From Alcanivoracaceae bacterium (GTDB lineage Bacteria; Pseudomonadota; Gammaproteobacteria; Pseudomonadales; Alcanivoracaceae), in contig JBECKT010000051.1 of NCBI GenBank assembly GCA_040235405.1, positions 6,879 through 70,878 of the forward strand: a stretch of DNA of 64,000 nucleotides, given 5' to 3'. Below, piece after piece: positions 36,184 through 62,900 of this stretch; within the stretch, counting starts at the first letter, position 1; every line of letters starts with the position of its first letter. Both the position numbers and the translations under genes were made by a program. Below the pieces are notes generated by a model. It was not told where the DNA came from and ran no database searches. It saw only the letters and a program-made list of their open reading frames with translations.

Positions 36184-36241
36184 GAGCGGCCGAGCGGCCG
36201 CGATTGTTTCCGGGGTATCGCCGTCGGTCGACGGTTCCTAC
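36181..36241. repeat. REP-like composite palindromic element, copy A
   Basis: TAGGAGC-GCGGCCGAGCGGCCGC-spacer-GCCGTCGGTCGACGG-TTCCTAC. It shares its architecture and most bases with the copies at 61605 and 63146. Confidence 0.8.
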
Positions 36242-37314: not shown

Positions 37315-37392
37315 AACCTGCCTCCACGCGATCACCGCGTTTTATCTGTTGCCTGTGGCCAAGTATAGCCATGACCGGTCAAGGGCGTGTCA

Positions 37393-39947: not shown

Positions 39948-40182
39948 AAGCGCATCCTCTCGCTTGATTTGGTAATGCCATCATCTTAGCTGTGATGGCA
40001 ATCACATTTCATCGCCTTAATCAGGGTGCGGCCCGGATTTTACAATTCACGCCAGCCGACTGTCTGATCGGGCCACCCGCCCGTCTGCTCTTGCTGCCGA
40101 TATTTCTCTGCAGGACCGTCCCCGGTCGCCGCCGCACTCGCCAGCAGGTACAATGCGCGCCCCCGCTGTTTCCGGATACCTG

Positions 40183-47485: not shown

Positions 47486-49216
47486 TCAGTACGTCAATAT
47501 CAGGTTGCCGAGAATCGAATAGCGCGAGTCCCGCTCGAACAGGTCGTCAAAACCTTCGCCGGGCAGCAACTGCGCCACCGACAAACGGCCGACAATGTTC
47601 TGGATCGCCAGCGGCCGCCAGATAATGGCAGCGGAAATATCCCAACCGATTTCCCGGTCGATATTGTCCTGCTGGCGTAACACCTCGATCACTTCGGTGC
47701 GATCAAAGGCAAGATGATTGGCGTTGAAACTGAGCCGGGCAGTCGGGGTCAGGTCCAGATCGGCACCAACACCGAGCAACCGCAGTCCCGGATTGGTGAA
47801 GTTGGACTGGCCGTGCTCTTTCGACGAACGCAGGTTCGGCAACAAACCATTACGCGTTGACAGGGTTACCCCGCCGCCGGCAATAAAGGGCACGCCCTGA
47901 CGGATCCAGAAGCTGGTGTCGGCACCGGCAATAATCGGGTTCTCGAACACCGCATCGAAGCCGGTCTCGACTTTATCAAACGGATTGCGATCACCGGAAG
48001 CATGCACACCGGTGGCGCGCAGACGAATCCAGTCAAAATCAATACCCGCTTCAAAGGCAGCAAAGCTGGCGCGCACCTCGGTGGTCTCATCGTTCATGAC
48101 CCCGGGGGCGTTGCGGCCACTGGCGGCGTACAACGACGTGGTCAGATTCAGGCGGCCAAGATGGCCATCACCGTTGTAACCCAGATAGGTGACGTCATAG
48201 CTGCGCGGCACTTCCCGGCCAAGCGAGGCGGGACGGGCAATAAAGCCGTTATCGTCATAGAAGAAACTGTCCTCCCGATTACGGTTATGCAGCAGGCTGA
48301 ACTGGCTGATAAACCCCAGCTTGAGAAAATCCTGCCAGTACAGGTTGGCAACGAAAACATCATCGTCGCGGAAACGGGCGGTAACATCGTTCAGGCCGCT
48401 GTTGGTGTCTTTTTCCAGACGCCGGAACCAGGCCAGGTTGTACTGGAAGATATTGTTGTCCCGGGTGCCGAACAGGCGCACACCGAACGGGCTGTCCTGA
48501 AACAGAAAGCCGCGAAAATCCGCATTGAACGGCTGGATGCCAACGCGAATACTGTCGAAGTCGTATCGGTCGGAGACATTACGGATGTGGTAGTCAACAA
48601 AAGCGCCCTGCACGCCGACATGGCCATCGGTACGGGTATCGCCGTCACGCGGGTCGATATACAGGGCACGGACCTCCTCCACCTCAGTGCGGTTGAAGTT
48701 AAACACCGGGATAAAGCGGAACTCCCAGTCCGGCGGTCGAAACACGGTATCGCCACGTAACCAGACCAGTTCCACCAACAGGTTCTGATTGAAAGTCACC
48801 TGCTCGCCACTGCCGAACACATCAATATCACCGCTGTCGCCGGTGGTCTGGTTGCCTACCGGGGTGGGAATATCACGCAGCTCCAGCACGGTATCGGATA
48901 CTGCGGTCAGCGAGAAGAACCATTCGCCCCGGACCGGCTTGTCACCCTTTAAGACATTACGTTGGTAGGGATTCCACAGGCTGTGGTTGTAACCCGGCAG
49001 GCTATCAACAATGCGCCAGCGATCCGGCACTGCCTGCAACGGCTGATCCTGAAACAGCGGCGCGGCGGGAATGGCATTGTCGTCGCACAGCACTTGCTGA
49101 CGCGCTTCAACCTTTTTGCCCGGCAGACGAATTTGCGGCTGCTGATCCGGCTCAGGACATTCCGCCTGTGCCAGCAGCGGCATCAGCAGCAACATGAAAA
49201 GCGGGAGGCGATGCAT
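47486..49216 (-). CDS. Probable outer-membrane beta-barrel protein
   Basis: Signal peptide MHRLPLFMLLLMPLLAQA. Alternating hydrophobic beta-strand patterning runs throughout, rich in aromatics, Gly, Asn and Asp. The C-terminus ends with an aromatic residue (...GNLILTY). I cannot assign a family with confidence. Confidence 0.6.
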   Translation of the reverse strand: MHRLPLFMLLLMPLLAQAECPEPDQQPQIRLPGKKVEARQQVLCDDNAIPAAPLFQDQPLQAVPDRWRIVDSLPGYNHSLWNPYQRNVLKGDKPVRGEWFFSLTAVSDTVLELRDIPTPVGNQTTGDSGDIDVFGSGEQVTFNQNLLVELVWLRGDTVFRPPDWEFRFIPVFNFNRTEVEEVRALYIDPRDGDTRTDGHVGVQGAFVDYHIRNVSDRYDFDSIRVGIQPFNADFRGFLFQDSPFGVRLFGTRDNNIFQYNLAWFRRLEKDTNSGLNDVTARFRDDDVFVANLYWQDFLKLGFISQFSLLHNRNREDSFFYDDNGFIARPASLGREVPRSYDVTYLGYNGDGHLGRLNLTTSLYAASGRNAPGVMNDETTEVRASFAAFEAGIDFDWIRLRATGVHASGDRNPFDKVETGFDAVFENPIIAGADTSFWIRQGVPFIAGGGVTLSTRNGLLPNLRSSKEHGQSNFTNPGLRLLGVGADLDLTPTARLSFNANHLAFDRTEVIEVLRQQDNIDREIGWDISAAIIWRPLAIQNIVGRLSVAQLLPGEGFDDLFERDSRYSILGNLILTY

Positions 49217-51147
49217 TATTTGCCTCCGCAGGGTGTCTGTTCATTGCTGTCGAGAAACGGTGCCTGCGGACACTGCACATAACGCAGCCGGGTGCCGTGC
49301 GGGGCCAGCTGGTCGGCGCGCATCATTACCGGCGCATTGTTGATGCTGCCAAGCAGCTCACCGGCCTGATGCACGGACAGAAACGAAATCATGTCATCCT
49401 GATCAATGCCGTCACCGGATACCCCAATGGCACCGACCAGTGTGCTGCCACGGTAGATCGGCACACTGCCGGGGAAAATCTGGGTGCCATTCGCCACCGG
49501 GTCGACATTGCCAGCGGATGTCACACGACTGATGGCGCTGCACCCCTCGGCGACATCAACACCACTCAGGCCGGCGGCAAAAGCAACATGACCAATAAGC
49601 TGGTTATAGACCAGATCCAGCTGCAGGCCGGTGGAGAACGGACTCCACTGCCCTTCCGGTTTCGATAAAGGTCCGGGCGGCGCACTGCGCAGACCATCCG
49701 GGAAATACGGCCGCGACAGATTACCGCCGGCGCGATCACTAAAAGCGTAGGCGCCATCGGCAAGCGCTGAAGGCAGATCCAGAAAGGTGCGTAGCGCATC
49801 AACGTAATCACCGATATCAACACTGGTTGCCACGGTCGGCGCACCAGCGACCAGTACCGGGCCAAGATAATCCGCCGTCGGCAGCGCCTGTAACTCTGCG
49901 GCCGCCTGCGTGCCTGAATAAAATGCAGCAGTACGCGCCTTCTGCAACGACACATCAGTACCGAACAGTGGCGCATCGCGGGTCCGCACCAGCCCCAGCA
50001 CCACACCATTACGATCCACCACACTGATGCTGACCCGTGCCTGACTTCCAAGTGGCCGACGAATCTGGGCCCGGGCGCGACTGGCAATCAACAGCGCCTG
50101 ATCCAGCACTGCAGTGACTTCAGTCTGGGTCAGCGCACCGGGGCCATCACTGGCGGCGACTGGCGGGAAGCGCGGCGTGTCGGTGGCATCTACCAACACG
50201 AAGGCATCGCGGCCGGGGAAAAAGTTTTCGGTATCGGCACGAATACCGGAACCGCTTTGGGTAAATGTCTGACCGGCGATAATGCCGCCACCGGCATTGA
50301 AGTAACCCGGCACACTAACCAGCGCACCGGTCAGACTGGCAAACGCCGGCACCGGCAGAGACCGGGTCTGCACCATCGCCACGCTCATATCGCTGTAACG
50401 CAGCTGCTTGCCTTCAACGGTGATGCGTTCGGCACGACGGTCCGCCGGCGCCAGCAAACCGCGACTACCAGCCAGCGCCACCACTTCATCCAGTGACTGA
50501 TCGCGATCAAACAGACTGTCATCGAAACTGTAGCGATCATCCACCACTACACCGATACCGCCGATAACGGTGCCATCGCGATACAGCGGGAAGCCGCCCG
50601 GATCAGCGGACAACCCCAGCGGAGCATGCTTGGGGCCGTGGCTGCCATCGGTCACACGCACCGTCAGATCGGAACAGGCCAGCTGGGAGAACTGCACGCC
50701 AAACAGGGGCCCGGCCGGCTGATTGCGCTCGCCCGGATTGAAATGCTCCTGCACGATCTGGCTGGCGGTGCGTGAACTGAAGGCATTGCCCTCGCTGGAC
50801 AGATAAGCGCCGGTGACCGCCTTGCTGATCGCTGCCAAGGTGGCCGGAATAAAGCTGATATTTTCCAGACCGCCGCTGACCGGATAGGGCGATGCAATAG
50901 TTACCGCATCAACTGCGCCAACCATCTGATACACGGCCAGAATATTGCCAACCCGGTCAGACACGGCAATGGTAGCCGCGACGCCACGCTGATCCGCCTC
51001 CAGTGCAGCCGCTGCAATAATGCTTTCGACATCCGCAGCGGAGAGAAAGCTGGCCGGGCTGACACAGCTGCCATCACAGCCGCCATTCGATAACGAATCG
51101 CCGCCACAACCGGCCAGCAGCAGACACAGCCCGATCAGCCGTTTCAC
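49216..51147 (-). CDS. Lipoprotein with two tandem GlcG/HbpS-like (DUF336, haem-binding/haem-degrading superfamily) domains
   Basis: Lipobox LLLAGC after a GTG start. Domain 1: ATIAVSDRVGNILAV...GGFPLYRDGTVIGGIGVVVD. Domain 2: SISVVDRNGVVLGL...LQKARTAAFYS...GSVPIYRGSTLVGAIGVSGDGIDQDD. Compare E. coli GlcG: GGVPVVVDGQIIGAVGVSG. Confidence 0.7.
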   Translation of the reverse strand: MKRLIGLCLLLAGCGGDSLSNGGCDGSCVSPASFLSAADVESIIAAAALEADQRGVAATIAVSDRVGNILAVYQMVGAVDAVTIASPYPVSGGLENISFIPATLAAISKAVTGAYLSSEGNAFSSRTASQIVQEHFNPGERNQPAGPLFGVQFSQLACSDLTVRVTDGSHGPKHAPLGLSADPGGFPLYRDGTVIGGIGVVVDDRYSFDDSLFDRDQSLDEVVALAGSRGLLAPADRRAERITVEGKQLRYSDMSVAMVQTRSLPVPAFASLTGALVSVPGYFNAGGGIIAGQTFTQSGSGIRADTENFFPGRDAFVLVDATDTPRFPPVAASDGPGALTQTEVTAVLDQALLIASRARAQIRRPLGSQARVSISVVDRNGVVLGLVRTRDAPLFGTDVSLQKARTAAFYSGTQAAAELQALPTADYLGPVLVAGAPTVATSVDIGDYVDALRTFLDLPSALADGAYAFSDRAGGNLSRPYFPDGLRSAPPGPLSKPEGQWSPFSTGLQLDLVYNQLIGHVAFAAGLSGVDVAEGCSAISRVTSAGNVDPVANGTQIFPGSVPIYRGSTLVGAIGVSGDGIDQDDMISFLSVHQAGELLGSINNAPVMMRADQLAPHGTRLRYVQCPQAPFLDSNEQTPCGGK

Positions 51148-52820
51148 GGCATCACCTCGGGCAGGTCGGCATGATCCAGTTCAAACTGGTGATAGTTGTG
51201 ACAGCTGATGCAACCGGAAAGCAGCCCCTGCTTCTGCTGCTGGCCGACATGACATTCCTGACAGACGGCAATGTCCGGCATCAACACATCTGCAGTCTCC
51301 ATGGACTCGTTGGCGGCATGGCAGTCGGCGCATTCGGTTTGGGTGTGACGAACATGGGGAAATTCGCCGGAGACAAACCAGTTTTCATTCAGCCGTACCG
51401 GTTTGACAAACCACTGGGGCGGCTGCTCGCTGACCCTGTCCACTTCATGACAGCTGACACAGGCACGGCGCTCGAACATATCCTCTGCCACCGCCTGACT
51501 CTTTTTTTCCACCCAGGCGACGCCTTCGCGCTGCAACTGGCTGAGGTTATCGCGCTGGCCCGGTCTTAATGCCCGGATATCACCGGCGTCAGCGCGGTCC
51601 TGGATAAAGCGGCTGCTGTAGTACTCACGCAGATTAGCCAGCACCTGATCCGGCTTACCATGCGGCACGACCCGATTCGGATCGACTGGATCAAACGCCA
51701 GGCCATGGCAGCGGGCACAGTGTTGCTCCATCTTCACCGGCGCCATGTTAATGCCGTCCAGTGCCATCTCATGGCAACTGTCGCAACTCAGCACTTCCCA
51801 GTCGCCGTCATTATTCTTGATGCCTTCGACATCCAGATGCCCGGCGTGATCAAATTTCAGGTTGCTGTTATCGTGCAGGGATTCATCTACCGTCAGCCGC
51901 GGGCTCTGCAACCACTCGCGACTATCGTCCTGCCACTGCAGCATGCTCAGGCGGAACGCTGGATGATCGGCATGGAAGTCCGTTGCCTTGCCGACCTGTG
52001 GCTCACTGCCCATGCGCTGGTCAAGGCTGGCATGGCAATCGGCACAGAAGCGCTGATCCTCAAACACCATGCGCTGCTCGCCGTTATGTTCATGATGACA
52101 AGAGGCACAGCGCTCGCCATCAAACAGACCGGCATCCGGATGCCCTGCCGGCACATGCAAAGCGGTTTCTTCATGACAGGCAACGCAGGTATCGTTGCTG
52201 ACTTTCTCAAACGGTTTGGTGTGACAGGCCTGACAATCCTTGCCAATGGTGCTGTGCACCGAATGCAACTCGCCACTCAACCACAGGCTGTCATCCGGCA
52301 ACGGCGTATTACGCAGCACATTCTGAAATTCCGGCTTTAGCGTCACCAGTGCCGGCAACAACAGCGCTGCAACCAGCAACACAAGGAACAGCGCCCAGGC
52401 CCAGCGACGCGGACGCCAGAGCGTCAATGCATCCAGCCGGGTAACAAACTTCGCCGGATCAATCGACGGCGCTTCCTGTTGCTCCAGCACCTCCAGACTG
52501 AGCGCCAGATCAACACCGTCCGGCGCGGCAATCACGATCAGGCGATAGTCACCGATCAGGATCTGGTCACCGGTATTCAGCACCGCCATCTTGCAGCTGC
52601 GACCATTTACCGTGATGCCGGTACTGGCCAGCGCACGAATCCGGAACTGACCGGCACTCAGGGAGATTTCCGCGTGCTGGTAGGCAACCCGGTCGCCGGG
52701 CAACAACAATTCCTGATCGGTACCACGACCTATGCTGAGCTGATCAACCGCCAGCTCTTCATCCTTGTAGCTTCGATTCTGACCGCTGCCAGCGCCGAGA
52801 CGGCGTATCAATACATACAT
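51144..52820 (-). CDS. FHA domain - single TM helix - periplasmic decahaem c-type cytochrome
   Basis: N-terminal FHA-like LSIGRGTDQELLLPGDRVAYQHAEI...ITVNGRSCKMAVLNTGDQILIGDYRLIV. TM helix RRWAWALFLVLLVAALLLPALV (positive-inside). Ten CxxCH motifs: CQACH, CVACH, CASCH, CADCH, CDSCH, CARCH, CVSCH, CADCH, CQECH, CISCH. The start is ATG 52820 or TTG 52850. Confidence 0.8.
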   Translation of the reverse strand: MYVLIRRLGAGSGQNRSYKDEELAVDQLSIGRGTDQELLLPGDRVAYQHAEISLSAGQFRIRALASTGITVNGRSCKMAVLNTGDQILIGDYRLIVIAAPDGVDLALSLEVLEQQEAPSIDPAKFVTRLDALTLWRPRRWAWALFLVLLVAALLLPALVTLKPEFQNVLRNTPLPDDSLWLSGELHSVHSTIGKDCQACHTKPFEKVSNDTCVACHEETALHVPAGHPDAGLFDGERCASCHHEHNGEQRMVFEDQRFCADCHASLDQRMGSEPQVGKATDFHADHPAFRLSMLQWQDDSREWLQSPRLTVDESLHDNSNLKFDHAGHLDVEGIKNNDGDWEVLSCDSCHEMALDGINMAPVKMEQHCARCHGLAFDPVDPNRVVPHGKPDQVLANLREYYSSRFIQDRADAGDIRALRPGQRDNLSQLQREGVAWVEKKSQAVAEDMFERRACVSCHEVDRVSEQPPQWFVKPVRLNENWFVSGEFPHVRHTQTECADCHAANESMETADVLMPDIAVCQECHVGQQQKQGLLSGCISCHNYHQFELDHADLPEVMP

Positions 52821-52824
52821 GGCA

Positions 52825-53715
52825 TCACCAGTAGAAGAACACGCTGACAATATGCGCCGTCAGCGTTGCCAGCAGTGCCAGCGTCAGCGGGATATGGCAG
52901 TACAACCAGATCTCCATCAGCCCCTGCAGACGGATATCTTTAAGTAACTGTTTCACCAGTCTGGCTTTACGCGAGACCAGATCGATCAGCTCCTGCAGCA
53001 GCGCCGCTTCCTTGGGATCCGTGCTGCGTGACAGCAACCCGGTCAACTCATCCAGTAAGCGTTGCTGGTGCGAATTACTGACCCGCTTCCAGCTCTTCTG
53101 CTTTTTCCTGACCTCGCTGATCATCATTCGCGAACGGTCACGCCCACCGAGTTGCTGCCAGACGCCACCGCCAACCTGAAACAATTGAATGGCGGAAATC
53201 ACCATCCGGTCTGCCGGTGAGCCGAGACCTTCAACAATCAGACTGGCCTTGCGATCAATATCGGCAATCTCGCGGAAGATCAGATCGCGAGTCATGCCAT
53301 CACGGTTGCGGGTAATACGATTCGGGTAACGCCAGTACACCCAGCCACCATAAAAGCCGCTGACGATAACCAGCACCATCAACAGCCAGGCCAGTGTGTG
53401 AATGTTCAAACCAAACTGAAAGCCGCTATGCAGCGTGCCCACCACCAGCAGTGAACCGCCCAGGTAAACGTGCGCAGACAACCAACCCTTGACGCTGCCG
53501 ATACGTGAGTAATAGGCGCGCTTGCGCACCCCGAACAGGGTCAGCCAGACAATCAGCAATGCGGCAATAGTGCCAAGGGTATAACCCAGCCAGGTACCGC
53601 CATTAGGCAACCCGATCGGTTCGTGCCAGACGTAGGCAACAACACTGGCCAGTACCAGCACCAGCGCAAACCAGAACCAGAAGCCGCCACGGTGAGAGAG
53701 GAAAGAGCCGTGCAT
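52825..53715 (-). CDS. Five-TM membrane protein with two H-x13-H pairs (candidate di-haem cytochrome b)
   Basis: The ATG at 53715 lies 7 nt after GGGAGGA. TM3 is AHVYLGGSLLVVGTLH (His codons at 53470-53472 and 53428-53430). TM5 is CHIPLTLALLATLTAH (His codons at 52894-52896 and 52852-52854). A ~130-aa soluble helical loop lies between TM4 and TM5. Confidence 0.6.
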   Translation of the reverse strand: MHGSFLSHRGGFWFWFALVLVLASVVAYVWHEPIGLPNGGTWLGYTLGTIAALLIVWLTLFGVRKRAYYSRIGSVKGWLSAHVYLGGSLLVVGTLHSGFQFGLNIHTLAWLLMVLVIVSGFYGGWVYWRYPNRITRNRDGMTRDLIFREIADIDRKASLIVEGLGSPADRMVISAIQLFQVGGGVWQQLGGRDRSRMMISEVRKKQKSWKRVSNSHQQRLLDELTGLLSRSTDPKEAALLQELIDLVSRKARLVKQLLKDIRLQGLMEIWLYCHIPLTLALLATLTAHIVSVFFYW

Positions 53716-53717
53716 GC

Positions 53718-56099
53718 TCAATCCTCCCTGACCAGTTCAATAAACTGCTCCGGACTGATCCGCACCGCCGCGCCGGTCGGGCAGGCGCGCACACAGGCCG
53801 GGCCACCCTTGAGGTTGGCACACATGTCACACTTCACTGCTCGCTTCGGTGCGTCCTTGGCCTTGACCTTTTTGTGCTCGGCGCCGAACAGCACCCGGCT
53901 CCACAGCCCCGGCTGGGAACCACCGATCGGCGCCATCTGGATCACACCATAGGGGCAGTTGCTTTCACAGTTACCACAGCCGATGCAGTTGTCGGCAATC
54001 ACCACCTCGCCACTGGCATTACGACTGATCGCATCCGGCGGGCAATCTTTCATGCAATGCGGATGTTCGCAGTGACGACAGGAAGTCGGCACATGGATTG
54101 AGGCATAGCTTGGCCCGGCCTCACGATTCAGCCGCGAGGTACCACCGTGGGTGGAAGCGCAGGCGGTCTCACAGTTATCGCAACGCACGCACAGGGATTC
54201 GTCGATCAGCAACACATCGGTGGCTTCGCCCAGACCCTGACGCATCAGGAACGACAGCAGCTCACCACCTTCCGAGGAAGATTCCATGCTGGCATTGGCA
54301 CGCAGCCGCGCCTGCAGCTGCGTCTGCACCTGCGCCTTCAGTTTCGGGTCTCGCTCCAGCAAGGCGAGGAACGGCTCGCTTTTCATGACCACGGTTTCGG
54401 TCGGCACCACGGCGCGTACCGAAGCGGTACGGCGGGAATTACCAAGCAACCCCATTTCACCGACATATTTGCCCGCCGGCACATAGGACAGCACCACCTC
54501 GCGGCCTTGCAGGTAACGGGAAACCGTCAGTGAACCACGCCGCACCAGATGCAGCTCGTCACCGCTCTCGCCTTCGGCGAACAGGACCTCGCCGGGAGCG
54601 TACTGACGCAGCTCTGCCGAGTTCACCAGATCGGCCAGATCCTCCAGATTGGCGTTCGGCGCAAACTGGGAATGAATCGCACGCAGGATAAACACCTGAT
54701 CAATCCGCCGCCGCACTTCATCCACCGACGACAGCAATCGCAACATGGTCCGGCGCGGGGTTTCCACCAGCACACAATAGCGACCGGCATAAACCGTGGC
54801 ATTACGACGCCGGCCGGAAATCAGGCCCATCTCGCCAAAGAACTGACCTTCGCCAATGGTAACCCGTTTGCCGGTCTGTTCATCAATCTCGACCTCCACC
54901 GAACCTTCCACGACTGAGTAGAACGAGTTGGTGTAGTCATTGCGAGAGAAGATCACCTCGCCCGCCTTCGGCATGTGCACTTCGCTTTCCAGAATCAGCT
55001 CACGGAAACGCAGGCTGTTGACGGGACCGAAACAGAGCACATTGTTTTTGATCTTCTCCAGCGTCTGCTCGACGTCCAGTCCGAATGGCAAGCCAGAGAA
55101 CTTCTTTGCCAGCAAGCCATGATCCACCGGCTTGATATCGCGACCGAGAATATGCTCGATCACTTCATAACCCTGATTCATGGCCTGCTTGATCAGCGGA
55201 TAACCAGCCAATGCGCCGATCACATACAAGCCCGGCACATTCGATTCGTACTGATGAGTCAGTTCCGGCACCGCATTGGTTGATTTATTGGGAAACTGGA
55301 TGCCACAGGATTCGACAAAATCACGCGGCGGAATAGCGCCCAACCGGGCAATGATCCGATCCACTGGCACCTGCACTTCACCTTCGCCGGTACTCAGCGA
55401 CACCTGGGCCCGATGCTCACCATTACCCTGCACTTCAATACTACGCAGACTGCTGTTGAAAAATACCCTGATACGGCCGCGCTCAATGGCATCCTCAAGC
55501 AGGCTCAGGTTTCCTTCTTTGGCACGGGCAAATTCGTCGCGGCGATTGATCAGCGACACCTTGTTCTGGCGGGCCAGTGCCAGCGCGTTTTCAATCGCCG
55601 AATCCCCGGCGCCGACCACCATGATTTCTTCGTTCTGATATTCGTCCGGATCATCCAGCTGGTATTGCACAAATGGCTGGTCTTCACCCGGCACACCGAG
55701 CTTGCGTGGATTACCCTGCAGACCAATGGCCAGCACCACATGCTTTGCTCGCACGCTTTTGCCGCTGCGTGTCTGCAGCACGAAATCACCGCGTTGGCCA
55801 CTGATGGCCGTGACATCAGCATTCCAGCCAACCTTGATGCCAAGTTTTTTGGCATTCTTCAGCCAGACGGCAAGGATGTCCTCACGACTGCCAGCATCAA
55901 ATGGCAGGCTGCTACGCAACGGCAGAAGGCCTGGCTCCGCCATGACGTGCTTGCCTTTCTGATAGCGCTGAATGGTATTGGCCAGATGGGTCGTGCTTTC
56001 CAGCAACAGGTGCGACAACCCCAGTTCAGCGGCACGGCCAGCGGCGCTGAGGCCCGCCGGGCCGGAGCCGACAATAACAACTTCAAAACGGTTTTCCAT
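53718..56099 (-). CDS. Cytoplasmic fusion protein: FAD/NAD(P)-dependent pyridine-nucleotide-disulfide-type oxidoreductase + 2 cyclic-nucleotide-binding domains + four-cluster [4Fe-4S] ferredoxin
   Basis: Dinucleotide motifs VVIVGSGPAGLSAAGRA and IMVVGAGDSAIENA. cNMP motifs FFGEMGLISGRRRNATVYA and YVGEMGLLGNSRRTASVRA. Cys motifs CVRCDNCETAC, CRHCEHPHCMKDCP, CIGCGNCESNCP and CDMCANLKGGPACVRACP. No signal or Tat motif. Confidence 0.85.
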   Translation of the reverse strand: MENRFEVVIVGSGPAGLSAAGRAAELGLSHLLLESTTHLANTIQRYQKGKHVMAEPGLLPLRSSLPFDAGSREDILAVWLKNAKKLGIKVGWNADVTAISGQRGDFVLQTRSGKSVRAKHVVLAIGLQGNPRKLGVPGEDQPFVQYQLDDPDEYQNEEIMVVGAGDSAIENALALARQNKVSLINRRDEFARAKEGNLSLLEDAIERGRIRVFFNSSLRSIEVQGNGEHRAQVSLSTGEGEVQVPVDRIIARLGAIPPRDFVESCGIQFPNKSTNAVPELTHQYESNVPGLYVIGALAGYPLIKQAMNQGYEVIEHILGRDIKPVDHGLLAKKFSGLPFGLDVEQTLEKIKNNVLCFGPVNSLRFRELILESEVHMPKAGEVIFSRNDYTNSFYSVVEGSVEVEIDEQTGKRVTIGEGQFFGEMGLISGRRRNATVYAGRYCVLVETPRRTMLRLLSSVDEVRRRIDQVFILRAIHSQFAPNANLEDLADLVNSAELRQYAPGEVLFAEGESGDELHLVRRGSLTVSRYLQGREVVLSYVPAGKYVGEMGLLGNSRRTASVRAVVPTETVVMKSEPFLALLERDPKLKAQVQTQLQARLRANASMESSSEGGELLSFLMRQGLGEATDVLLIDESLCVRCDNCETACASTHGGTSRLNREAGPSYASIHVPTSCRHCEHPHCMKDCPPDAISRNASGEVVIADNCIGCGNCESNCPYGVIQMAPIGGSQPGLWSRVLFGAEHKKVKAKDAPKRAVKCDMCANLKGGPACVRACPTGAAVRISPEQFIELVRED

Positions 56100-56382
56100 A
56101 AGTCCTTGCGGCCTTGTCCCTGATCCCCGTCACGCCGACGGCCGAGTACGAGGATGATAAGCGGTTACACCCCCTGTTCCCATGACGTTTTCCACCGAAC
56201 CGGGGTTTCTTCTCAGTTAGCCGGAAACGGAATCCATCTGGTCAGCTGAATTACCTAAACGATTCCTAGGCCGACCTCGCCAATTTACTGTCGCTGTGAT
56301 GCAAGACCCACATTTTGGGAGTAAAACGCACTACAAGGATGGGAACATAACAACCCGCACGCTTCACAGGGAGTGATTCGTC

Positions 56383-57552
56383 ATGTTTCGTCATGGTGTG
56401 TTTGGTCTGCTACTCGTCAGCGGCTGCCTGGGAGCCTTCACATGCGTGGCAGCCGAGGCTGATTGCCGCGGTTCAGCCAAAGTGCCGACCCAAGAACAAA
56501 GTCGCCAGGTGCTACTGGCGCTGAGCGAAGCAGATCAGGGCAACCGGCGTTCGCTACTGGAACAGTATCTGGCCAATCCGCCCACCAGAATCACTGCCGT
56601 GGAACAGGTAGCACTGAACCGCTCACGTCTGGCGCTGGCCGCCGACTACCTGACCGAATCCCGTTTTCCGGAAGCCCGCGAGCTGCTCAGCGCCATTGAG
56701 CTGGATAGCCCGATTGCCGTGCAGGCATCGCTGTTACTGGCCGAATCGTTCCGGCTGGAAGGGGATCATGCCCGCTCGGCGCAGTGGATGCTGCGCACCG
56801 GCCAGCGCTACGGCGCCGACCCGGATGCCCTGAAAAGTATGCTGGAGCAAGCCAATGAGCTGCGCTATCAGGGTGAACAGCAACAGGCCTTTGCCCTCTA
56901 CAATATGGTTCAGAGCCAGATTCTGAGTAATGCCGAACAGGTCGGCTCATTACGCAGCGAAGCTGACCGCCTGATTGCACAACTGCTGCGCACCCGTCTG
57001 GATGAAAGCCGCGCCGCCCAGAGCCAGATGCTCAAGCAGATGATCAATGACACCGACAGCAGCCTGCTGATGGACCTTGGCGCACTGGCACGTAGCACCG
57101 GGCTGCGCGAGTGCCTGGAAAAGCAGCAACGAAAAATCTCCGAAGCCGCGTTTGAGAATTCCGCCCAGCAGGCCCGAATCACCCCGTTCCTGACCATGCT
57201 CGACCGCGAGGAAGGCATGATGACGCGGCGGCTGGAGCAGCTTGGCGAGCCAACTCAGCCTGACCAGCAAGCCGAGCAAGAGGAAATCCGGCAGCAACTG
57301 GAAGCGCTGCGCAGTCGCCGTCAGGCCCTGCTTGATGAACAGCAACAGCTGCCCGGTGAGGCCGCCCGGGCGCACCGGGAAATTGCTGACAGGATTGCCG
57401 CACTGGATGAACAGAACGCGCAACGTCGCCAGCGGATCCGCGAGCAGCTCGACCTGGTCAGCAGCGAACTGATGACCCGCTACCGTGAGCTGGCAGCAGA
57501 AAGCCAGTACGGCCGCGCCACCCTGCTGGCCGAGCGCCACAGCGGCGGCTGA
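56383..57552 (+). CDS. Secreted hypothetical protein, helical/TPR-like N-terminal half and Gln/Arg/Glu-rich coiled-coil C-terminal half
   Basis: AGGGAG RBS and ATG at 56383. Signal peptide MFRHGVFGLLLVSGCLGAFTCVAA. I recognise no family. Confidence 0.55.
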   Translation: MFRHGVFGLLLVSGCLGAFTCVAAEADCRGSAKVPTQEQSRQVLLALSEADQGNRRSLLEQYLANPPTRITAVEQVALNRSRLALAADYLTESRFPEARELLSAIELDSPIAVQASLLLAESFRLEGDHARSAQWMLRTGQRYGADPDALKSMLEQANELRYQGEQQQAFALYNMVQSQILSNAEQVGSLRSEADRLIAQLLRTRLDESRAAQSQMLKQMINDTDSSLLMDLGALARSTGLRECLEKQQRKISEAAFENSAQQARITPFLTMLDREEGMMTRRLEQLGEPTQPDQQAEQEEIRQQLEALRSRRQALLDEQQQLPGEAARAHREIADRIAALDEQNAQRRQRIREQLDLVSSELMTRYRELAAESQYGRATLLAERHSGG

Positions 57553-57632: not shown

Positions 57633-58439
57633 ATGATTCCGCTGACCTCAACCCCCGACCAGACCACCGCGCTGAATGCCGTCCTGGAACGTCCTGGCAT
57701 CTGGCGCGGCCGCCCTGCCGCCAATACCGAGCTGGCCAGCGACAGCGGCTTCCCTGCCCTGAATGACGCCCTGCACCTGCGTGGCTGGCCGGCGGCCGGG
57801 CTGGTCGAGCTGCTTTGCAGTGGCCCCTGCCCACAGGCTTTGCGGCTGATGCTGCCGGTCATGGCCAGCCGGGCCGACGGCCTGGTACTACTGGCCAACC
57901 CACCGGCCCGGCCACGCGCGGAAACCCTGCAACAGGCCGGCATCAAGAGCCAGCGCCTGCTGGTGATGCGCAGTGAACGTCAGGACACCTTGCTGCAGGC
58001 CTGTCACGAAGCGCTCGCCAGTGGCGCCGTCAGCACACTGGTGATCTGGCTACCGGAAAACATGGACGACCAGACCAGCCTGCGGCGCCTGCATCTGGCC
58101 GCCCGCGAAGGTCGCTGTCTGCTGGTGGCCATGCGCCCGGCCAGCGTTGCCGATCGTCCCTCCCCGGCCAGTTTGCGCCTGCGCCTGCGGGCGCAACCGC
58201 CGGCCCATCTGGCGGTGGATGTGATCAAGCAGCCTGGCGGCTGGGGTGGCCAGCAGATCCATCTGGCCCTGCTGCCGGAACGCCTGAGCCAGCCACTGGC
58301 GGCCAGCCGTGATATGCCGGCACCGCCGCGGCTACGGGAAAAACAGAAAGCCGCACCTGGCTACCGCGACCCGGACAGCCGTTTTGCCTGGCGCCGCCCG
58401 GCAGCGACGCTGCCCAGCCTGCAAAACCTGCCGTTCTGA
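57633..58439 (+). CDS. imuA: Translesion-synthesis-associated protein ImuA (SulA/RecA-fold-like)
   Basis: GIWRG...SGFPALNDALHLRGWPAAGLVELL is typical of ImuA. It is first in the imuA-imuB-dnaE2 arrangement. Confidence 0.75.
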   Translation: MIPLTSTPDQTTALNAVLERPGIWRGRPAANTELASDSGFPALNDALHLRGWPAAGLVELLCSGPCPQALRLMLPVMASRADGLVLLANPPARPRAETLQQAGIKSQRLLVMRSERQDTLLQACHEALASGAVSTLVIWLPENMDDQTSLRRLHLAAREGRCLLVAMRPASVADRPSPASLRLRLRAQPPAHLAVDVIKQPGGWGGQQIHLALLPERLSQPLAASRDMPAPPRLREKQKAAPGYRDPDSRFAWRRPAATLPSLQNLPF

Positions 58440-58469
58440 TTTGTTGCATGACATACCCGGCGGTGGTCC

Positions 58470-59939
58470 GTGAGCCTGTGGCTGGCACTGCGTTTCCCGC
58501 AGCTGAAAATCGACGCCCTGCCAACGGCCAGCGCTGGCGAACCGCTGGTAGTGCGCGAGCAGCATCGGCTGGCGGCAGTAAATGCTGCGGCCTTCGAACA
58601 GGGCGTACAGGCGGGCATGAAGGTCGGCACCGCCCTCGCCCTGTGCGATGCATTGCAGATTTACGCACGGCAACCGGCCGCAGAACAACACTGGCTTGAG
58701 CAGCAGGCCCGGGCACTGGGCCGGTTCACACCGATGATTACCCACGACGACAATTGTCTGCTGCTGGAAATCGGCAGCTCATTACGGCTGTTCCGCGGAC
58801 TGGATACATTGCTGTCGCGGTTGCTGCGACAATTGCCCGCTGCAACAGAGTGCCACCCCGGCCTTGGCCACACTCCGCTTGCCGCGCAGATTCTCAGCCA
58901 GCTGCCACTGGCCGACAGCCGCGCCTGTATTGTTCTGAAAGACAGCCAACCGGAAATTTCCGCCGGCCGGCAAGCACTGCTGCAATTACTGGCGCGACAA
59001 CCGCTGGATCAGTTGCCGCTACCAGCCGCATTGAAAACCTCGTTACAGGGGCCGGGGCTGCGCACTCTGGGTGATTTGCTGGCGCTGCCGGACGGCGCCC
59101 TGCAGCGTCGCTTCGGCAGGAACCTGACGGACTGGCTGGCACGACTACGCGGCGACAAAGCCGACCTGCGCCAGCCGATCATCTCGCCGCAGCGTTTTCT
59201 GGTCACGCTGGAATTTGATGAGCCGGTTTCCGGCAGCGCACGCTTGCTGCCACTGATGCAACAGTTGCTGGAGCAGATGCAGGTCTGGCTGACCCGCCAT
59301 CAGCTGCAGGTGCGCGCCATTCGCTGGATCTTTTTTCCGTTACGCGGTGAACCGGATCGACTGCTGGTACGCCGCGCCGGGGCGGATCATCGCGCCGATG
59401 CCTGGCTGGATCTGTCACGCCGCCATCTGGAGCACACCCGACTGACCGCGCCGGCACTGAGGCTGACCCTGGAAGCCGGCCGACTACTGCCCATGGCGGC
59501 GCCACCGGCACATCTGTTTGCCGCACTGGAGCGCCCGGCAGCACGCGAATTGCTGGAAAAACTCGCCAACCTGCCCGGCTTGTCGCTGTATCAGCCAACA
59601 ACAGCGGACAGCCACCTGCCGGAACAGAATGAAATGCGCAGCGATCCGCTGGCACCAAACCGAACAGAGTCCTTTTTGCCGCTCTCCAGCTTTGTCGATG
59701 CGCCACTGTGGCTGCTGGAGCAACCCCTGCCACTACGCAGCCGCCAGCAACAGATATTCTGGCGCGGTGCTGCACTGGAGTTATTGCCCGGCCTGCGACA
59801 GTTCAATGAACCCTGGTGGCAAGCGCATCAGGGCTGGCAGCGTCATTACCACATTGGCCGACATCCGCTCGGCATTCACTGCTGGTTATTCCAGCAGGGG
59901 GATGGCGAAGGAGCGTGGTTTTTACACGGTTTCTTCTGA
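58470..59939 (+). CDS. imuB: Y-family-polymerase-like protein ImuB
   Basis: GTG start. LWLALRFPQLKIDAL...PLVV... is typical of the ImuB N-terminus. It lies directly upstream of dnaE2, with a 2-nt gap. Confidence 0.8.
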   Translation: MSLWLALRFPQLKIDALPTASAGEPLVVREQHRLAAVNAAAFEQGVQAGMKVGTALALCDALQIYARQPAAEQHWLEQQARALGRFTPMITHDDNCLLLEIGSSLRLFRGLDTLLSRLLRQLPAATECHPGLGHTPLAAQILSQLPLADSRACIVLKDSQPEISAGRQALLQLLARQPLDQLPLPAALKTSLQGPGLRTLGDLLALPDGALQRRFGRNLTDWLARLRGDKADLRQPIISPQRFLVTLEFDEPVSGSARLLPLMQQLLEQMQVWLTRHQLQVRAIRWIFFPLRGEPDRLLVRRAGADHRADAWLDLSRRHLEHTRLTAPALRLTLEAGRLLPMAAPPAHLFAALERPAARELLEKLANLPGLSLYQPTTADSHLPEQNEMRSDPLAPNRTESFLPLSSFVDAPLWLLEQPLPLRSRQQQIFWRGAALELLPGLRQFNEPWWQAHQGWQRHYHIGRHPLGIHCWLFQQGDGEGAWFLHGFF

Positions 59940-59941
59940 CC

Positions 59942-62900
59942 ATGAAAAAATCCGCGCGCGGCTTTGCCGAACTACACTGCCGATCCGCCTTCAGCTTTCT
60001 GACCGGCGCCAGCCAGCCGGAGGAATTGGTGGCACGTGCTGCAGCGCTCGGTTATCAGGCCCTGGCGATCACCGATGAGTGTTCGCTGGCCGGCATAGTG
60101 CGCGCCCATCAGGCGGCACGTGAGCACAGCCTGAAACTGATTACCGGCAGTCAGTTCCGGATCGAGGATAACGAATCAGACAAGCCCCTGAACCTGATCC
60201 TGCTGGTGCCACAGCGTCAGGCCTACAGTGAACTGTGCGCCCTGATCAGCCGCGGCCGCCGGCGCGGCGAAAAAGGCCAGTACCAGTTGCACTGGAAAGA
60301 TCTGACTCGGCTGGTCCAGCGCTGCCTGTGTCTTTGGCTACCCGCTTTTGATCGGCAACAGGACCTCGATCAGGGCACCAGACTGAAAGCGCATTTCCCT
60401 GATCGACTCTGGATTGCCTGCGAGCTGTTGCAGGAAGAACACGACGGCGCCCGCTATCAGTACCTGTGGCAACTGGCCAGCGCGCTTGACCTGCCGATGC
60501 TGGCCAGCAATGACGTGCATATGCATGTTGCCGAGCGGCAACCGCTGCAGGATGTGCTAACTGCCCTGCGCTATCGTTGCACCGTACAGACCCTCGGCCG
60601 CCGCCGCTTCCTTAACGACCAGCGCCACCTGCGCCCACTGGCTGCACTCAGTGAAATTTACCCTCAGGCATTACTTGCAGAGAGCCTGCATATCGCCGGG
60701 CTATGCCAGTTCTCCCTGAGTGAACTGCGCTACCAGTATCCCCGTGAGGCGATTCCAGCCGGCATCAGTGCCGCCGACTGGCTCCGGCAGCTGGTCTATC
60801 AGGGCGCCGCACTGCGCTGGCCCAACGGTGCGCCGAATGGAGTGCACAGCCTGCTGGAAAAGGAACTGGCCCTGATCAGCGAGCTGCGTTACGAGGCCTA
60901 CTTTCTGACCGTGCATGACATCGTCATGTTTGCCCGCAACCAGCACATTCTCTGCCAGGGTCGCGGCTCAGCCGCCAACTCGGCGGTCTGTTATTGTCTG
61001 TTTATCACCGAAGTTGACCCGTCACGCAGCCAGCTGCTGTTCGAGCGTTTCATTTCCCGCGAGCGTGACGAGGCGCCGGATATCGATGTCGATTTCGAAC
61101 ATGAACGGCGCGAAGAAGTGATCCAGTACATCTACCGGAAATATGGCCGCAACCACGCCGCCCTCGCCGCCACGGTGATCCGCTACCGGATGCGCTCGGC
61201 GGTGCGCGATGTTGGCCGCGCACTGGGCATGGACATGGCCATTCTCGATCAGCTCAGCCGCAACCTGGCCTGGTGGGACAAGCGCGAAGAACTGCCACAG
61301 CGATTCCGCGAAGCCGGCCTGCACGACACCAGCCTGACCCGCCACTATCTGACACTGGTGAATCAGCTGCTCGGCTTTCCTCGCCATCTTTCCCAGCATG
61401 TCGGCGGTTTTGTTATCACCCATGAGCCGCTGCATACACTGGTGCCGGTGGAAAATGCCGCCATGATTGATCGCACCATTATCCAGTGGGACAAGGATGA
61501 TCTGGAAAGTATCGGCCTGATGAAGGTGGATGTGCTGGCACTCGGCATGCTCACCGCGATCCGCAAGATGCTGGACCTGATCAACCAGACACACACATCG
61601 GGAGCTGTAGGAGCCGTCGATCGACGGCGAGAAGATTTCGCGGCCGATCGGCCGCTCCTACAGGGAAATCAGTCATCCACACCGCCACTCACCTTGCAGA
61701 ATATTCCACCGGAAGACCCCGCCACCTATGCCATGCTGCAGAAAGGCGACAGCGTCGGCGTGTTTCAGGTGGAGTCGCGGGCACAGATGAACATGCTGCC
61801 GCGTCTTAAACCGGAAAGATTCTACGATCTGGTCATTGAAGTGGCGATTGTCCGCCCCGGCCCGATTCAGGGTGACATGGTGCATCCCTACCTGCGCCGA
61901 CGAAACAACGAGGAAGCAGTCGATTATCCGGATGCGCGCATCAAGGGCGTGCTGGAGCGAACACTGGGCATTCCGATTTTTCAGGAACAGGTGATCCAGC
62001 TGGTAATGGTAGCCGCCGGCTTCAGTGGCGGCGAGGCAGACCAGCTGCGCCGGGCCATGGCCAGCTGGGGCAAGGACGGCACCCTGTTCCGGTTTGAAGA
62101 CAAGGTGATTCAGGGCATGCTGAAAAATGGTTACAGCCTTGATTATGCCAACCGTATTTTTGAACAGATGAAGGGTTTTGGTGGTTATGGTTTTCCCGAA
62201 TCCCACGCCGCCAGTTTTGCCCTGCTGGTGTATGTGTCGGCCTGGTTCAAGCGTCATCACAGCAGCGCATTTTACTGTGGCCTGCTCAACAGTTTGCCGA
62301 TGGGATTCTATTCCCCGTCACAACTGCTGCAGGACGCCCGTCGCCATGGCATTGAAGTCCGCCCGCCGGACAGCGATCACAGCCACTGGGATTACACCCT
62401 GGAAAACAGCGAGCGGCTGGCGCTGGGCGTGCAACCGGCGATCCGCATCGGCCTGCGCCAGATCAGCGGTTTCAATATGGAGGCGGCGGATCGCATTGTT
62501 GCGGCAAGGCAGCAACAGCCGTTCAGCAATATTCAGGACCTCTGCAGCCGCGCCAACCTTAACCGGAACGAACGGGAGTGTCTGGTAGCGGCCAATGCAG
62601 TACGACGATTAAGCGGCCATCGTCATCAGGGCTACTGGGACATGCTCGGCGTCGAGGAATCGCGACCACTGTTCGGCAAGGAGCAACACGATATCCGCGA
62701 CGGCATTTTTCTTGATGCGCCTTCGGAGATGGACACCATGCTGGCCGATTATCGCGCCCTGTCACTGACCACCGGCCGTCATCCGCTCGCCCTGCTGCGA
62801 CATCAGGAACCGTTCCGCAGCGCCTGCTCTGCAGCAACCCTGAGAAAAGCGCGGCACGGTCAACTGGTGCGGGTTGCTGGCCTGATCACCAACCGGCAAC

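Follow-up and report, generated by a model that had tools for sequence, protein, structure and literature searches.

The 64,000 nt stretch analysed here (contig JBECKT010000051.1 of GenBank assembly GCA_040235405.1, from an Alcanivoracaceae bacterium), referred to below as the window, contains an ATG-initiated open reading frame (ORF), here called g1, at positions 53718–56099 on the minus strand. Pfam and NCBIfam matches, together with the homologues, identify the 793 amino acid (aa) product as a fusion of a flavoprotein, two cyclic-nucleotide-binding (CNB) domains and a four-cluster ferredoxin. We consider the chance about even that g1 is the NADPH-driven electron-input subunit of a transmembrane haem chain and is gated by cAMP or cGMP. 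The protein is cytoplasmic, carries invariant motifs for cofactors and ligands, and belongs to a conserved triad with the products of the next two genes, a membrane protein (g2) and an anchored multihaem cytochrome (g3). We infer that the three proteins would form a physical complex, and that electrons would run outwards through it under nucleotide control and independently of the quinone pool.

In the proposed route, NADPH would reduce the FAD of a domain of the thioredoxin reductase (TrxR) or TrxR-like ferredoxin-NADP+ reductase type, and electrons would pass through four [4Fe-4S] clusters to two b haems of g2, one near each face of the membrane. From the outer haem of g2 they would reach the ten c haems of the membrane-anchored g3 and, in this lineage, continue through periplasmic and outer-membrane haem proteins (g4 to g7) to a periplasmic or extracellular acceptor. 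The CNB tandem lies between the flavin and the Fe-S wire, and binding of cAMP or cGMP would set the coupling of these two halves, while an FHA domain on g3, located on this cytoplasmic face as well, would make the chain responsive to phospho-threonine. This reading is preferred because the gene cluster encodes no other cytoplasmic donor, because conservation within g1 is highest in the flavin and ferredoxin domains, and because the outward direction is downhill both thermodynamically and electrically, as it is whenever electrons are moved from NADPH out across an inside-negative membrane. Gating is proposed because of the position of the CNB domains between donor and wire, and by analogy with PKA and PKG.

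Domain content and location of g1

All four parts of g1 were recognized by Pfam models with scores above the gathering thresholds, in agreement with an earlier note on this DNA that had been made from the sequence alone. The same note had placed the protein in the cytoplasm with no Sec or Tat signal, and this also holds, since the strand-loop-helix of the FAD-binding beta-alpha-beta unit begins at residue 4 and no export signal is possible. A chance fusion is excluded by the Pfam E-values, and also by the fact that at least 594 species genomes conserve the architecture over its full length. The composition is uniform and the genes flanking the operon are chromosomal housekeeping genes. A promoter scan of positions 56000–56450 found no sigma-70-like site upstream of g1, and inspection of the upstream sequence by eye showed no obvious palindrome for CRP or FNR.

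The conservation figures given below for g1 were taken from an alignment of 81 sequences. In the AF2 model of g1, pLDDT is 70–95 for the flavoprotein domain and 33–57 for the ferredoxin domain, and a Foldseek search with the whole model returned a match for the flavoprotein domain only. Because the ferredoxin domain was modelled at such low values, the inter-domain geometry was left uninterpreted.

The flavoprotein domain

Residues 1–320 (positions 55140–56099, minus strand) were assigned to a low-Mr TrxR-fold FAD/NAD(P)H domain from alignments, Foldseek and conservation. They match Pyr_redox_3 (6.7e-36, aa 8–295) and Pyr_redox_2 (4.5e-33), with the fold spanning about aa 6–310, and they align over their full length with low-Mr TrxRs and with TrxR-like ferredoxin-NADP+ reductases. 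The two Rossmann motifs pointed out earlier, GSGPAG (aa 11–16) and GAGDSA (aa 163–168), are present and conserved, with G11-x-G13-x-x-G16 and G163-x-G165-x-x-A168 invariant. The segment LINRRDEFARA falls on the NADPH 2'-phosphate motif (LIHRRDTFKA or LIHRRPQFRA) of TrxRs and TrxR-like reductases, so that in the alignment g1 has a motif of the HRRxxxR type. Within NR[RK]DEFARAK (NRRDEFARAK in the window), N185, R186 and R192 never vary, while residue 187 can be either R or K. NADPH, rather than NADH, is the probable donor.

The redox-active CxxC of TrxR (C-S-V-C in chain 3f8p; 3f8d is the C147A mutant) aligns with QLDDP in g1, and apart from the variable C265 there is no conserved Cys in aa 1–320. 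The best Foldseek matches were to YpdA/Bdr (E 1e-24, TM-score 0.8), followed by TrxR-like ferredoxin-NADP+ reductases (2zbw, 3ab1, 3lzw, 6gar, 5ygq) and TrxRs at E 1e-21 to 1e-24. For YpdA and the TrxR-like reductases taken together, E-values were 1e-22 to 1e-24 and TM-scores reached 0.81. Against the NCBIfam equivalog models, g1 scored 88 bits for TrxR (TIGR01292, cut-off 343) and 144.7 bits for the bacillithiol disulfide reductase YpdA (TIGR04018, cut-off 339.9). A TrxR proper is ruled out by the missing CxxC and the score, and YpdA by a score far below its cut-off. Scores this far below both cut-offs make the domain a distinct branch of the TrxR fold. Its features are those of the type that passes single electrons to ferredoxin, and it would probably not reduce a disulfide. 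Together with the ferredoxin it is the best conserved part of g1, 92 of its 320 positions being conserved in at least 97 % of the sequences.

The TrxR-like ferredoxin-NADP+ reductases and YpdA/Bdr (PDB 2zbw, 3ab1, 3lzw, 6gar, 7apr) have in common with g1 the two-domain FAD/NAD(P)H fold, the NADPH Arg motif and the lack of a redox-active CxxC in the NADPH domain. TrxR-like ferredoxin-NADP+ reductases hand electrons one by one to ferredoxin, and the same reaction is proposed in cis for g1. However, g1 is only 21–27 % identical to these proteins, and its acceptor ferredoxin is fused to it, with two CNB domains lying between donor and acceptor.

The four-cluster ferredoxin domain

The C-terminal domain (aa 628–793, positions 53721–54218, minus strand) was delimited from its motifs and from PDB and NCBIfam matches. 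The Pfam 4Fe-4S matches cover about aa 630–790 (Fer4_11, 3.1e-11, 43.8 bits against a threshold of 26.2, and further Fer4 models). Its 16 Cys, all of them invariant, fall into four groups, C637xxCxxCxxxC, C674xxCx4Cx3CP, C705xxCxxCxxxCP and C757xxCx8Cx3CP, with the spacing of the four-cluster ferredoxin family (DmsB/NrfC/HycB/HydN, PF13247). The earlier note had the first three spacings right and gave x7 for the fourth, which is x8. It had also called the domain NarH/NrfC-like, and this assignment has to be replaced, as the closest proteins are cytoplasmic connectors of the HycB/HydN/AegA type. PDB sequence matches were to HycB3 and HycB4 of 7qv7 and to HycB of 7z0s, and partial NCBIfam matches were to HydN, AegA, DmsB, ArrB and NrfC.

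Membership of the NrfC/DmsB group is ruled out, because the domain is C-terminal in a protein that starts with an FAD fold and, unlike DmsB and NrfC, has no Tat signal; the scores were 43 against a cut-off of 378 for NrfC and 50 against 214 for DmsB. NarH is ruled out because g1 has four complete Cys groups, with no [3Fe-4S] group and no large insertions, in a domain of 165 aa compared with about 500 aa. No NarH model was among the best 25 of 121 NCBIfam matches, and Pfam scans found no molybdoenzyme gene in the operon.

With HycB, HydN and AegA-type connectors as its closest relatives, a cytoplasmic location is ordinary for this ferredoxin. These proteins (PDB 7qv7, 7z0s) share the four Cys motifs with g1 and agree with its ferredoxin domain in length, aa 631–790 of g1 covering the whole of HycB3, and they serve as a cytoplasmic wire linking a catalytic subunit and a partner, as is proposed for g1. 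AegA-type proteins are likewise fused to an NAD(P)H flavoprotein. In contrast, g1 is below the equivalog cut-offs of HydN (61 vs 260) and AegA (64 vs 1003), and its partners would be a membrane cytochrome and a multihaem cytochrome instead of a hydrogenase or formate dehydrogenase.

The cyclic-nucleotide-binding domains

The Pfam model cNMP_binding (PF00027) matched two stretches of g1 (6.4e-39, 132 bits against a gathering score of 27.5). Domain A (aa 366–475, positions 54675–55004, minus strand), which was assigned from Pfam and from alignment to CNB-A of PKG and PKA-R, carries the cassette FFGEMGLISGRRRNATV. Domain B (aa 480–600, positions 54300–54662, minus strand; best Pfam stretch aa 498–584) carries the cassette YVGEMGLLGNSRRTASV and aligns to CNB-B of PKG and to CRP. 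G422, E423 and R430–432 are invariant in domain A, as are G547, E548, R557 and A559 in domain B, and every cassette residue (G422, E423 and R432-x-A434; G547, E548 and R557-x-A559) is either invariant or conserved in at least 85 % of the sequences. Both cassettes keep the G-E...R-[ST]-A signature in relatives of about 33 % identity. The first cassette had been described as having RNA in place of RTA, which is correct for the window sequence; this is a substitution of the lineage, and the family consensus is RSA (RRRSAT).

The whole A–B tandem aligns with those of PKG and PKA-R (aa ~340–570 of g1 with 38–255 of PfPKG and 3–231 of yeast Bcy1), and the cassette residues of these proteins are likewise kept in g1. 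In PKA-R and PKG, nucleotide binding frees or activates the attached catalytic module, whereas the module regulated in g1 would be an electron-transfer chain, not a kinase. By this analogy, gating of g1 by a cyclic nucleotide is plausible.

An unlikely alternative, which overlaps with the others considered below, is that the CNB domains are structural linkers or bind other ligands, as in CooA, NtcA and CprK, and exert no second-messenger control. It would accommodate the Asn that replaces the usual Ser/Thr in cassette A of the window and the lack of a cyclase among the window ORFs in a scan that was not exhaustive, and CNB-fold domains of many bacteria do bind other ligands; however, the other-ligand proteins known so far lack the Gly-Glu and Arg-[Ser/Thr]-Ala residues through which CRP, PKA and PKG hold the ribose and cyclic phosphate, and the g1 family keeps these throughout, down to its most divergent members at about 33 % identity.

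Conservation of the gene cluster

g1 is the first of seven genes on the minus strand (56099 to 42486), along which stop and start codons overlap or nearly abut. The fusion had been thought unusual, but it is not, as at least 594 species-representative genomes encode a relative of g1 and two preprints (see below) have noted the module. A search of 1.84 billion representatives (50 % identity) gave 1135 proteins with matches to g1 at E <= 1e-30, and about 55 of the matches listed are full length (about 770–880 aa), with identities down to 34 %. Clustering at 90 % identity gave more than 120 full-length clusters that are 58–98 % identical to g1. The names attached to these relatives are all generic, for example cyclic nucleotide-binding domain-containing protein.

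Synteny was assessed by tblastn of the operon proteins at the best 80 loci from these at least 594 genomes. The loci are from Gamma-, Beta- and Alphaproteobacteria and include an Alcanivoracaceae metagenome-assembled genome at 95 % identity. Genes g1-g2-g3-g4-g5-g6 are colinear at loci with a long enough flank; g2 was found at 62 of the 80 loci, g3 at 66, g4 at 59, and g5 and g6 at 56 each. Where both g2 and g3 were found, they are colinear with g1 in Alpha-, Beta- and Gammaproteobacteria. A permuted order, g3-g4-g5-g6-g7-g1, occurs in Betaproteobacteria, with g7 directly upstream of g1. In relatives at 34–36 % identity, homologues of g2 and of g3, the latter with ten haems, come after g1, with no g4–g7. 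A chance neighbourhood is ruled out because the synteny extends across three proteobacterial classes and to relatives of 34 % identity. The earlier proposal that g1 works with the membrane protein encoded next is strengthened by the colinear g1-g2-g3 arrangement, which persists at 34–36 % identity. Its view of a single membrane subunit as the partner was too narrow, as the core is a triad, joined in this lineage by four genes for periplasmic or outer-membrane proteins.

Complete genes of 464–481 aa that consist only of CNB-CNB-ferredoxin, with no flavin domain, were also found. Two of the three examined are followed by a four-His g2-like protein and a multihaem cytochrome with a transmembrane (TM) anchor, and at one of these two loci the cytochrome is detectably homologous to g3. 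Because complete proteins that lack it sit in the same kind of module, the flavin domain is accessory to the CNB-CNB-FeS core. From the distant relatives, which keep the triad without g4–g7, and from the flavin-less genes, we conclude that the ancient unit is [CNB-CNB-4x(4Fe-4S)] + [4-His membrane protein] + [anchored multihaem cytochrome]. On this comparison, the flavoprotein is an N-terminal addition in the proteobacterial branch, and g4–g7 are an addition in a sub-branch.

Other variants rearrange the same parts. In one genome (P0250, GCA_039908105.1, L090:10001-13333), g1 and g2 are a single ORF of 1110 aa, joined by a short linker (...SPELFFGDLTSWVTENMSTIQDK...) and followed by g3. This could be a genuine fusion or a lost stop codon and, as a single case, could be an error. 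In other lineages (P0261 and P0254; e.g. L088:5316-8720), one or two FHA domains are found at the N-terminus of g1 in a g1–g6 cluster that is otherwise identical, and g3 of these lineages keeps its own weak FHA-type signal. Because FHA moves between g3 and g1, its input would act on the same cytoplasmic assembly as g1. No Ser/Thr kinase was seen in the g1 cluster. Two candidate split-gene versions (P0326 and P0337) were discarded as fragments at contig ends.

Flanking ORFs were clustered all against all in a search for additional conserved neighbours, cyclases and kinases among them. Most were antisense shadow ORFs, and the few real extra clusters had no Pfam match. At 16 loci, mostly of the Lysobacterales type (e.g. 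L029:8120-9850, minus strand), the region upstream of g1 contains a conserved gene on the opposite strand. This gene directly adjoins g1 in about half of the loci, and its product (~540–600 aa where complete) has no Pfam match, haem motif or signal peptide.

The membrane protein g2 and the anchored cytochrome g3

g2 (positions 52825–53715, minus strand) encodes a 296 aa protein with five TM helices that is a probable di-haem b protein, judging from His conservation, weak Pfam matches and an AF2 model (pLDDT 85). The ORF opens at TTG (52825–53721), and homologues start at its third codon, the ATG at 53715. An insert of ~135 aa between TM4 and TM5 is cytoplasmic by the positive-inside rule, its flanking loops being rich in Arg and Lys. 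Four His residues (His84, His98, His276 and His290 in a 298 aa numbering) are invariant in 60 close and four distant homologues, while a fifth (His108) is not retained in the distant homologues. The four form two i/i+14 pairs, H84/H98 and H276/H290, on TM3 and TM5. By the positive-inside rule, each of these two helices leads from the cytoplasm to the outside, in the distant homologues too. With this spacing and direction, His84+His276 and His98+His290 can hold one haem per membrane face. Spacing of the i/i+14 type is classic for cytochrome b and NOX.

Weak matches to Ni_hydr_CYTB (PF01292, cytochrome b561) were found in 38 of 44 g2 members (best 4e-5, all below 30.1 bits; E 0.69 and below threshold for g2 of the window) and to DUF4405 in seven of 44. 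Precomputed matches at distant loci were faint and to the same families. Ferric reductase (PF01794) was not among the families in the Pfam scans and there was no fold match to it. Because Foldseek and profile searches of the PDB were both empty, g2 fits no solved di-haem family, and it is probably a new family of di-haem b proteins with putative haem ligands in the four His.

g3 (positions 51144–52850, minus strand) was identified from the Pfam models FHA, Cytochrome_C7 and c3 as a protein that combines an FHA domain at its N-terminus with one TM helix and a decahaem cytochrome c in the periplasm. Its start is probably the ATG of MYVLIRR (about 52820), not the TTG at 52850. The FHA domain resembles GarA and OdhI, and all 54 of the g3 homologues have 10 CxxCH.

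It is quite unlikely that g1 and g2 instead form an NAD(P)H:quinone oxidoreductase, similar to FdnH-FdnI or HyaA-HyaC on the cytoplasmic side, with g3 as a separate CymA/NapC-like quinol dehydrogenase, so that electrons would travel via the quinone pool instead of going straight from haem b to haem c. The one family signal for g2 is that of the quinone-reactive Ni_hydr_CYTB, and in Fdn and Hya such cytochromes b have four-cluster ferredoxins as partners, but all of the g2 scores are sub-threshold and no fold match was obtained with FdnI, HyaC or NarI. Similarly, g3 has one TM helix and a multihaem domain, as do NapC, NrfH and CymA (a likeness noted in bioRxiv 10.64898/2026.01.22.701106), but its haem domain has no match to NapC/NirT in Pfam or NCBIfam. 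The strict adjacency and near-overlap of g2 and g3, and the g3 homologue that directly follows the g1-g2 fusion ORF, fit a single complex better than a pair of enzymes connected through a diffusible pool.

Weighing the proposed mechanism

The same parts could carry electrons inwards, from a periplasmic or extracellular donor such as Fe(II), reduced sulfur or a cathode to the c haems, the b haems, the Fe-S clusters and NAD(P)+. TrxR-like ferredoxin-NADP+ reductases are reversible, and g7 resembles cytochrome c554, an acceptor in an oxidative pathway. The triad is found in the Fe(II) oxidizer Ferrigenium straubiae, for which uptake toward the inner membrane is proposed in a preprint (bioRxiv 10.64898/2026.01.22.701106). 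We consider inward flow very unlikely, as transfer from a donor of the Fe(II) type to NAD(P)+ (-320 mV) would be strongly uphill and opposed by the membrane potential, Pfam scans found no ion- or proton-coupling subunit encoded in the cluster, and most of the named hosts (Alcanivoracaceae, Lysobacterales, Cognaticolwellia) are known mainly as aerobic heterotrophs.

Little credence can be given to g1 being mainly a sensor, whose flavin and Fe-S clusters would report the NAD(P)H/redox state of the cytoplasm and whose CNB domains would report cyclic nucleotides, so that g1 would switch the g2-g3 chain on or off together with FHA and would not carry the main electron flux. In favour of this, the flavin fusion is younger and less widespread than the CNB-FeS core, and signalling domains of two kinds (CNB, and FHA that is sometimes fused to g1) lie on the cytoplasmic face. 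Against it, four invariant HycB-type [4Fe-4S] clusters make a wire of ~40 Å, which is typical of electron conduits, where sensors use one or two clusters, the NADPH motif and flavin domain are among the best conserved parts, and no other cytoplasmic donor is encoded in the cluster.

Several observations weigh against NADPH-driven, nucleotide-gated electron input by g1, in addition to the uptake proposed for F. straubiae. The flavin-less variants show that NADPH input is not universal, and one of the three complete flavin-less genes examined has no g2 neighbour. In Betaproteobacteria, g2 was not detected within the fetched flanks and four genes lie between g3 and g1. The Pfam signal of g2 is sub-threshold, Foldseek found no PDB fold match below E 0.2 (unrelated helical proteins only), a profile of 44 g2 sequences found nothing below E 1.7 among PDB sequences, and a reaction of g2 with quinone is conceivable. 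In the AF2 model of g1, the ferredoxin is of low confidence and the inter-domain geometry is not trustworthy. Cassette A of the window has Asn where most relatives have Ser, and neither a nucleotide cyclase nor a Ser/Thr kinase was found among the window ORFs covered by the non-exhaustive scan.

Taken to its full extent, NADPH-driven input by g1 would make the cluster a quinone-independent export line, widespread in aerobic Proteobacteria, in which electrons pass a flavin, four Fe-S clusters, two b haems and more than 20 c haems on their way to the periplasm or the cell surface. Its throughput would be set directly by binding of cAMP or cGMP to g1, and by phospho-threonine through FHA. Such a line would be a bacterial counterpart of regulated NADPH oxidases and the first one with allosteric control of electron transport by a cyclic nucleotide, for which we are aware of no precedent. 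We offer this extension as a tentative and rather doubtful possibility. If the proposed model is correct, second-messenger control of electron transfer would be post-translational and would go beyond transcription factors of the CRP type. There could also be a route for extracellular electron transfer in hosts that are not regarded as electroactive, among them Alcanivoracaceae, Lysobacterales, Steroidobacteraceae, Woeseiaceae, Burkholderiales and the Alphaproteobacteria of marine oxygen-deficient zones that transcribe the ptd genes (see below). A route fed by NADPH instead of the quinone pool would bear on redox balancing, iron and manganese reduction, and the production of reactive oxygen in oceans and soils.

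Downstream genes and the remainder of the window

The operon encodes 24 CxxCH haem c sites in addition to the two putative b haems of g2. g4 (positions 49216–51147, minus strand) encodes a 643 aa lipoprotein (lipobox LAGC) with three HbpS/GlcG-like stretches, recognized by the Pfam HbpS-like model and by weak PDB matches to GlcG-like proteins. It sits in a haem-rich cluster, and haem binding or haem sensing are among its conceivable roles. g5 (positions 47486–49216, minus strand) encodes a 576 aa secreted protein with no Pfam match, which has a signal peptide and ends in ...LILTY; from its sequence, it is probably an outer-membrane barrel.

g6 (positions 43733–47479, minus strand) encodes a 1248 aa secreted decahaem cytochrome with C-terminal LVIVD repeats (Pfam LVIVD, 3.9e-16) that form a probable beta-propeller. 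All 35 of the g6 homologues have 10 CxxCH, and no PDB sequence relative was found at E <= 1. Identities are the highest of the cluster for g6 (59–69 % for the best segment in more distant loci from three proteobacterial classes) and the lowest for g3 (29–43 %). The conservation level of g6 suggests a catalytic terminal enzyme rather than a passive conduit.

g7 (positions 42486–43736, minus strand) encodes a 416 aa secreted tetrahaem cytochrome that is c554-like (Pfam Cytochrome_C554) and matches only the Nitrosomonas europaea c554 in the PDB (1bvb, 4e-5). In addition to the four CxxCH, an N-terminal CASSVCH (CX4CH) could bind a fifth haem. The 3' end of g7 overlaps by 4 nt the 3' end of a convergent gene for a YgiQ-type radical SAM protein (40153–42489, plus strand), and a ferrochelatase gene (hemH, 36238–37335, minus strand) lies ~5 kb past the end of the operon, a proximity that may be coincidental.

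Upstream of g1 are a gene for a TPR protein (56383–57552) and, at 57633–63145 on the plus strand, mutagenesis-like genes for a 268 aa protein with no Pfam match, an IMS-family polymerase-like protein and a PHP/DNA_pol3_alpha error-prone polymerase. The last three look like an imuA-imuB-dnaE2 cassette, a name that is based on Pfam domains only. The rest of the window (18518–19849, minus strand; 21291–22970, plus strand; 27029–28504, minus strand; 6214–11417, plus strand) looks like ordinary chromosome. It includes two ABC1/UbiB-type kinases, SelO, TamA/TamB, ProS, a sulfite/nitrite reductase haemoprotein and a PAS histidine kinase, and contains nothing evidently tied to the g1 cluster.

Published descriptions of the module

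An operon named ptdABCDEFG has been described in Alphaproteobacteria of oxygen-deficient zones in a 2024 preprint (bioRxiv 10.1101/2023.11.21.568154). In that work, PtdA is a pentahaem protein with a beta-sandwich, PtdB a porin, PtdC an FAD/NAD(P) oxidoreductase, PtdD a tetrahaem cytochrome, PtdF a 'ferric reductase-like' protein of the cytoplasmic membrane and PtdG a decahaem cytochrome. The operon is reported to be widespread in marine Proteobacteria and other phyla, and its function is 'completely unknown' according to the authors. By description only, g1, g2, g3, g7 and g5 match PtdE, PtdF, PtdG, PtdD and PtdB, respectively, and g1 has what is described for PtdE, namely CNB and 4Fe-4S domains encoded beside a TM protein, a decahaem cytochrome, a porin and a tetrahaem cytochrome. 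However, the flavoprotein (PtdC) is a separate protein in ptd and is fused to CNB-FeS in g1; again by description, the split-gene variants described above are in keeping with a PtdC of its own. Two clusters are ascribed to PtdE, whereas the 16 invariant Cys of g1 indicate four. PtdA is a pentahaem protein, whereas g6 has ten CxxCH and LVIVD repeats; neither g6, with no PDB relative at E <= 1, nor g7, which matches c554 only, could be mapped to PtdA. The HbpS-like lipoprotein g4 is not in the ptd list, and the gene order differs. None of the contigs in Table S7 of the ptd study is among the best 80 loci.

The second description, in a 2026 preprint, is of the 'NHC' cluster of F. straubiae (bioRxiv 10.64898/2026.01.22.701106). 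Its three adjacent genes encode a [4Fe-4S] protein, a protein with five TM helices that matches nothing in InterPro, and a protein with FHA, one TM helix and a multihaem domain. None of these has a signal peptide, and the function is given as unknown. The cytochrome has nine haems, compared with ten in g3. The authors name no haem ligands in the TM protein, for which they favour a scaffold role, and they propose inward flow from Fe(II) oxidases to quinone. In the sections consulted, CNB or flavin domains of the Fe-S protein are not discussed.

Beyond these two preprints, no paper in the library searched was found on the operon name, on FHA with a decahaem cytochrome or on the domain combination. 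Thus, g1 has been noticed before and is not a rarity, and no member is characterized. New here are the NADPH-type motif of g1, the probable haem ligands of g2, the recognition of the triad as a conserved core, and the variants in which genes are split or fused or FHA is swapped. If the proposed model holds, the four His of g2 and the split and fused variants would offer a concrete mechanism for the ptd and Ferrigenium NHC clusters.

Comparison with known electron-transfer systems

NOX, SpNOX and MsrQ-Fre follow the same logic as that proposed here, with electrons passing from cytoplasmic NAD(P)H to a flavin, to two bis-His b haems stacked across the membrane and to an acceptor on the outside. 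In NOX-type proteins, the His pairs are 13–14 residues apart on two helices, as they are in g2. However, g2 has no Ferric_reduct match or fold match, and an Fe-S wire lies between flavin and haem in g1-g2. The acceptor would be a chain of multihaem cytochromes, not O2 or MsrP, and regulation would be via CNB and FHA domains.

A similar transmembrane path is found in Tmc, Hmc and DsrMKJOP of sulfate reducers, where an Fe-S protein in the cytoplasm, a cytochrome b in the membrane and a multihaem cytochrome c in the periplasm act together. No homology to these complexes was detected beyond a weak partial match of DsrO to the g1 ferredoxin, and they have Fe-S subunits of the CCG type and no flavin, CNB or FHA domains. 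On the features identified here, the g1 cluster would be best filed as an uncharacterized variant of the transmembrane electron-transfer complexes that has second-messenger domains built in.

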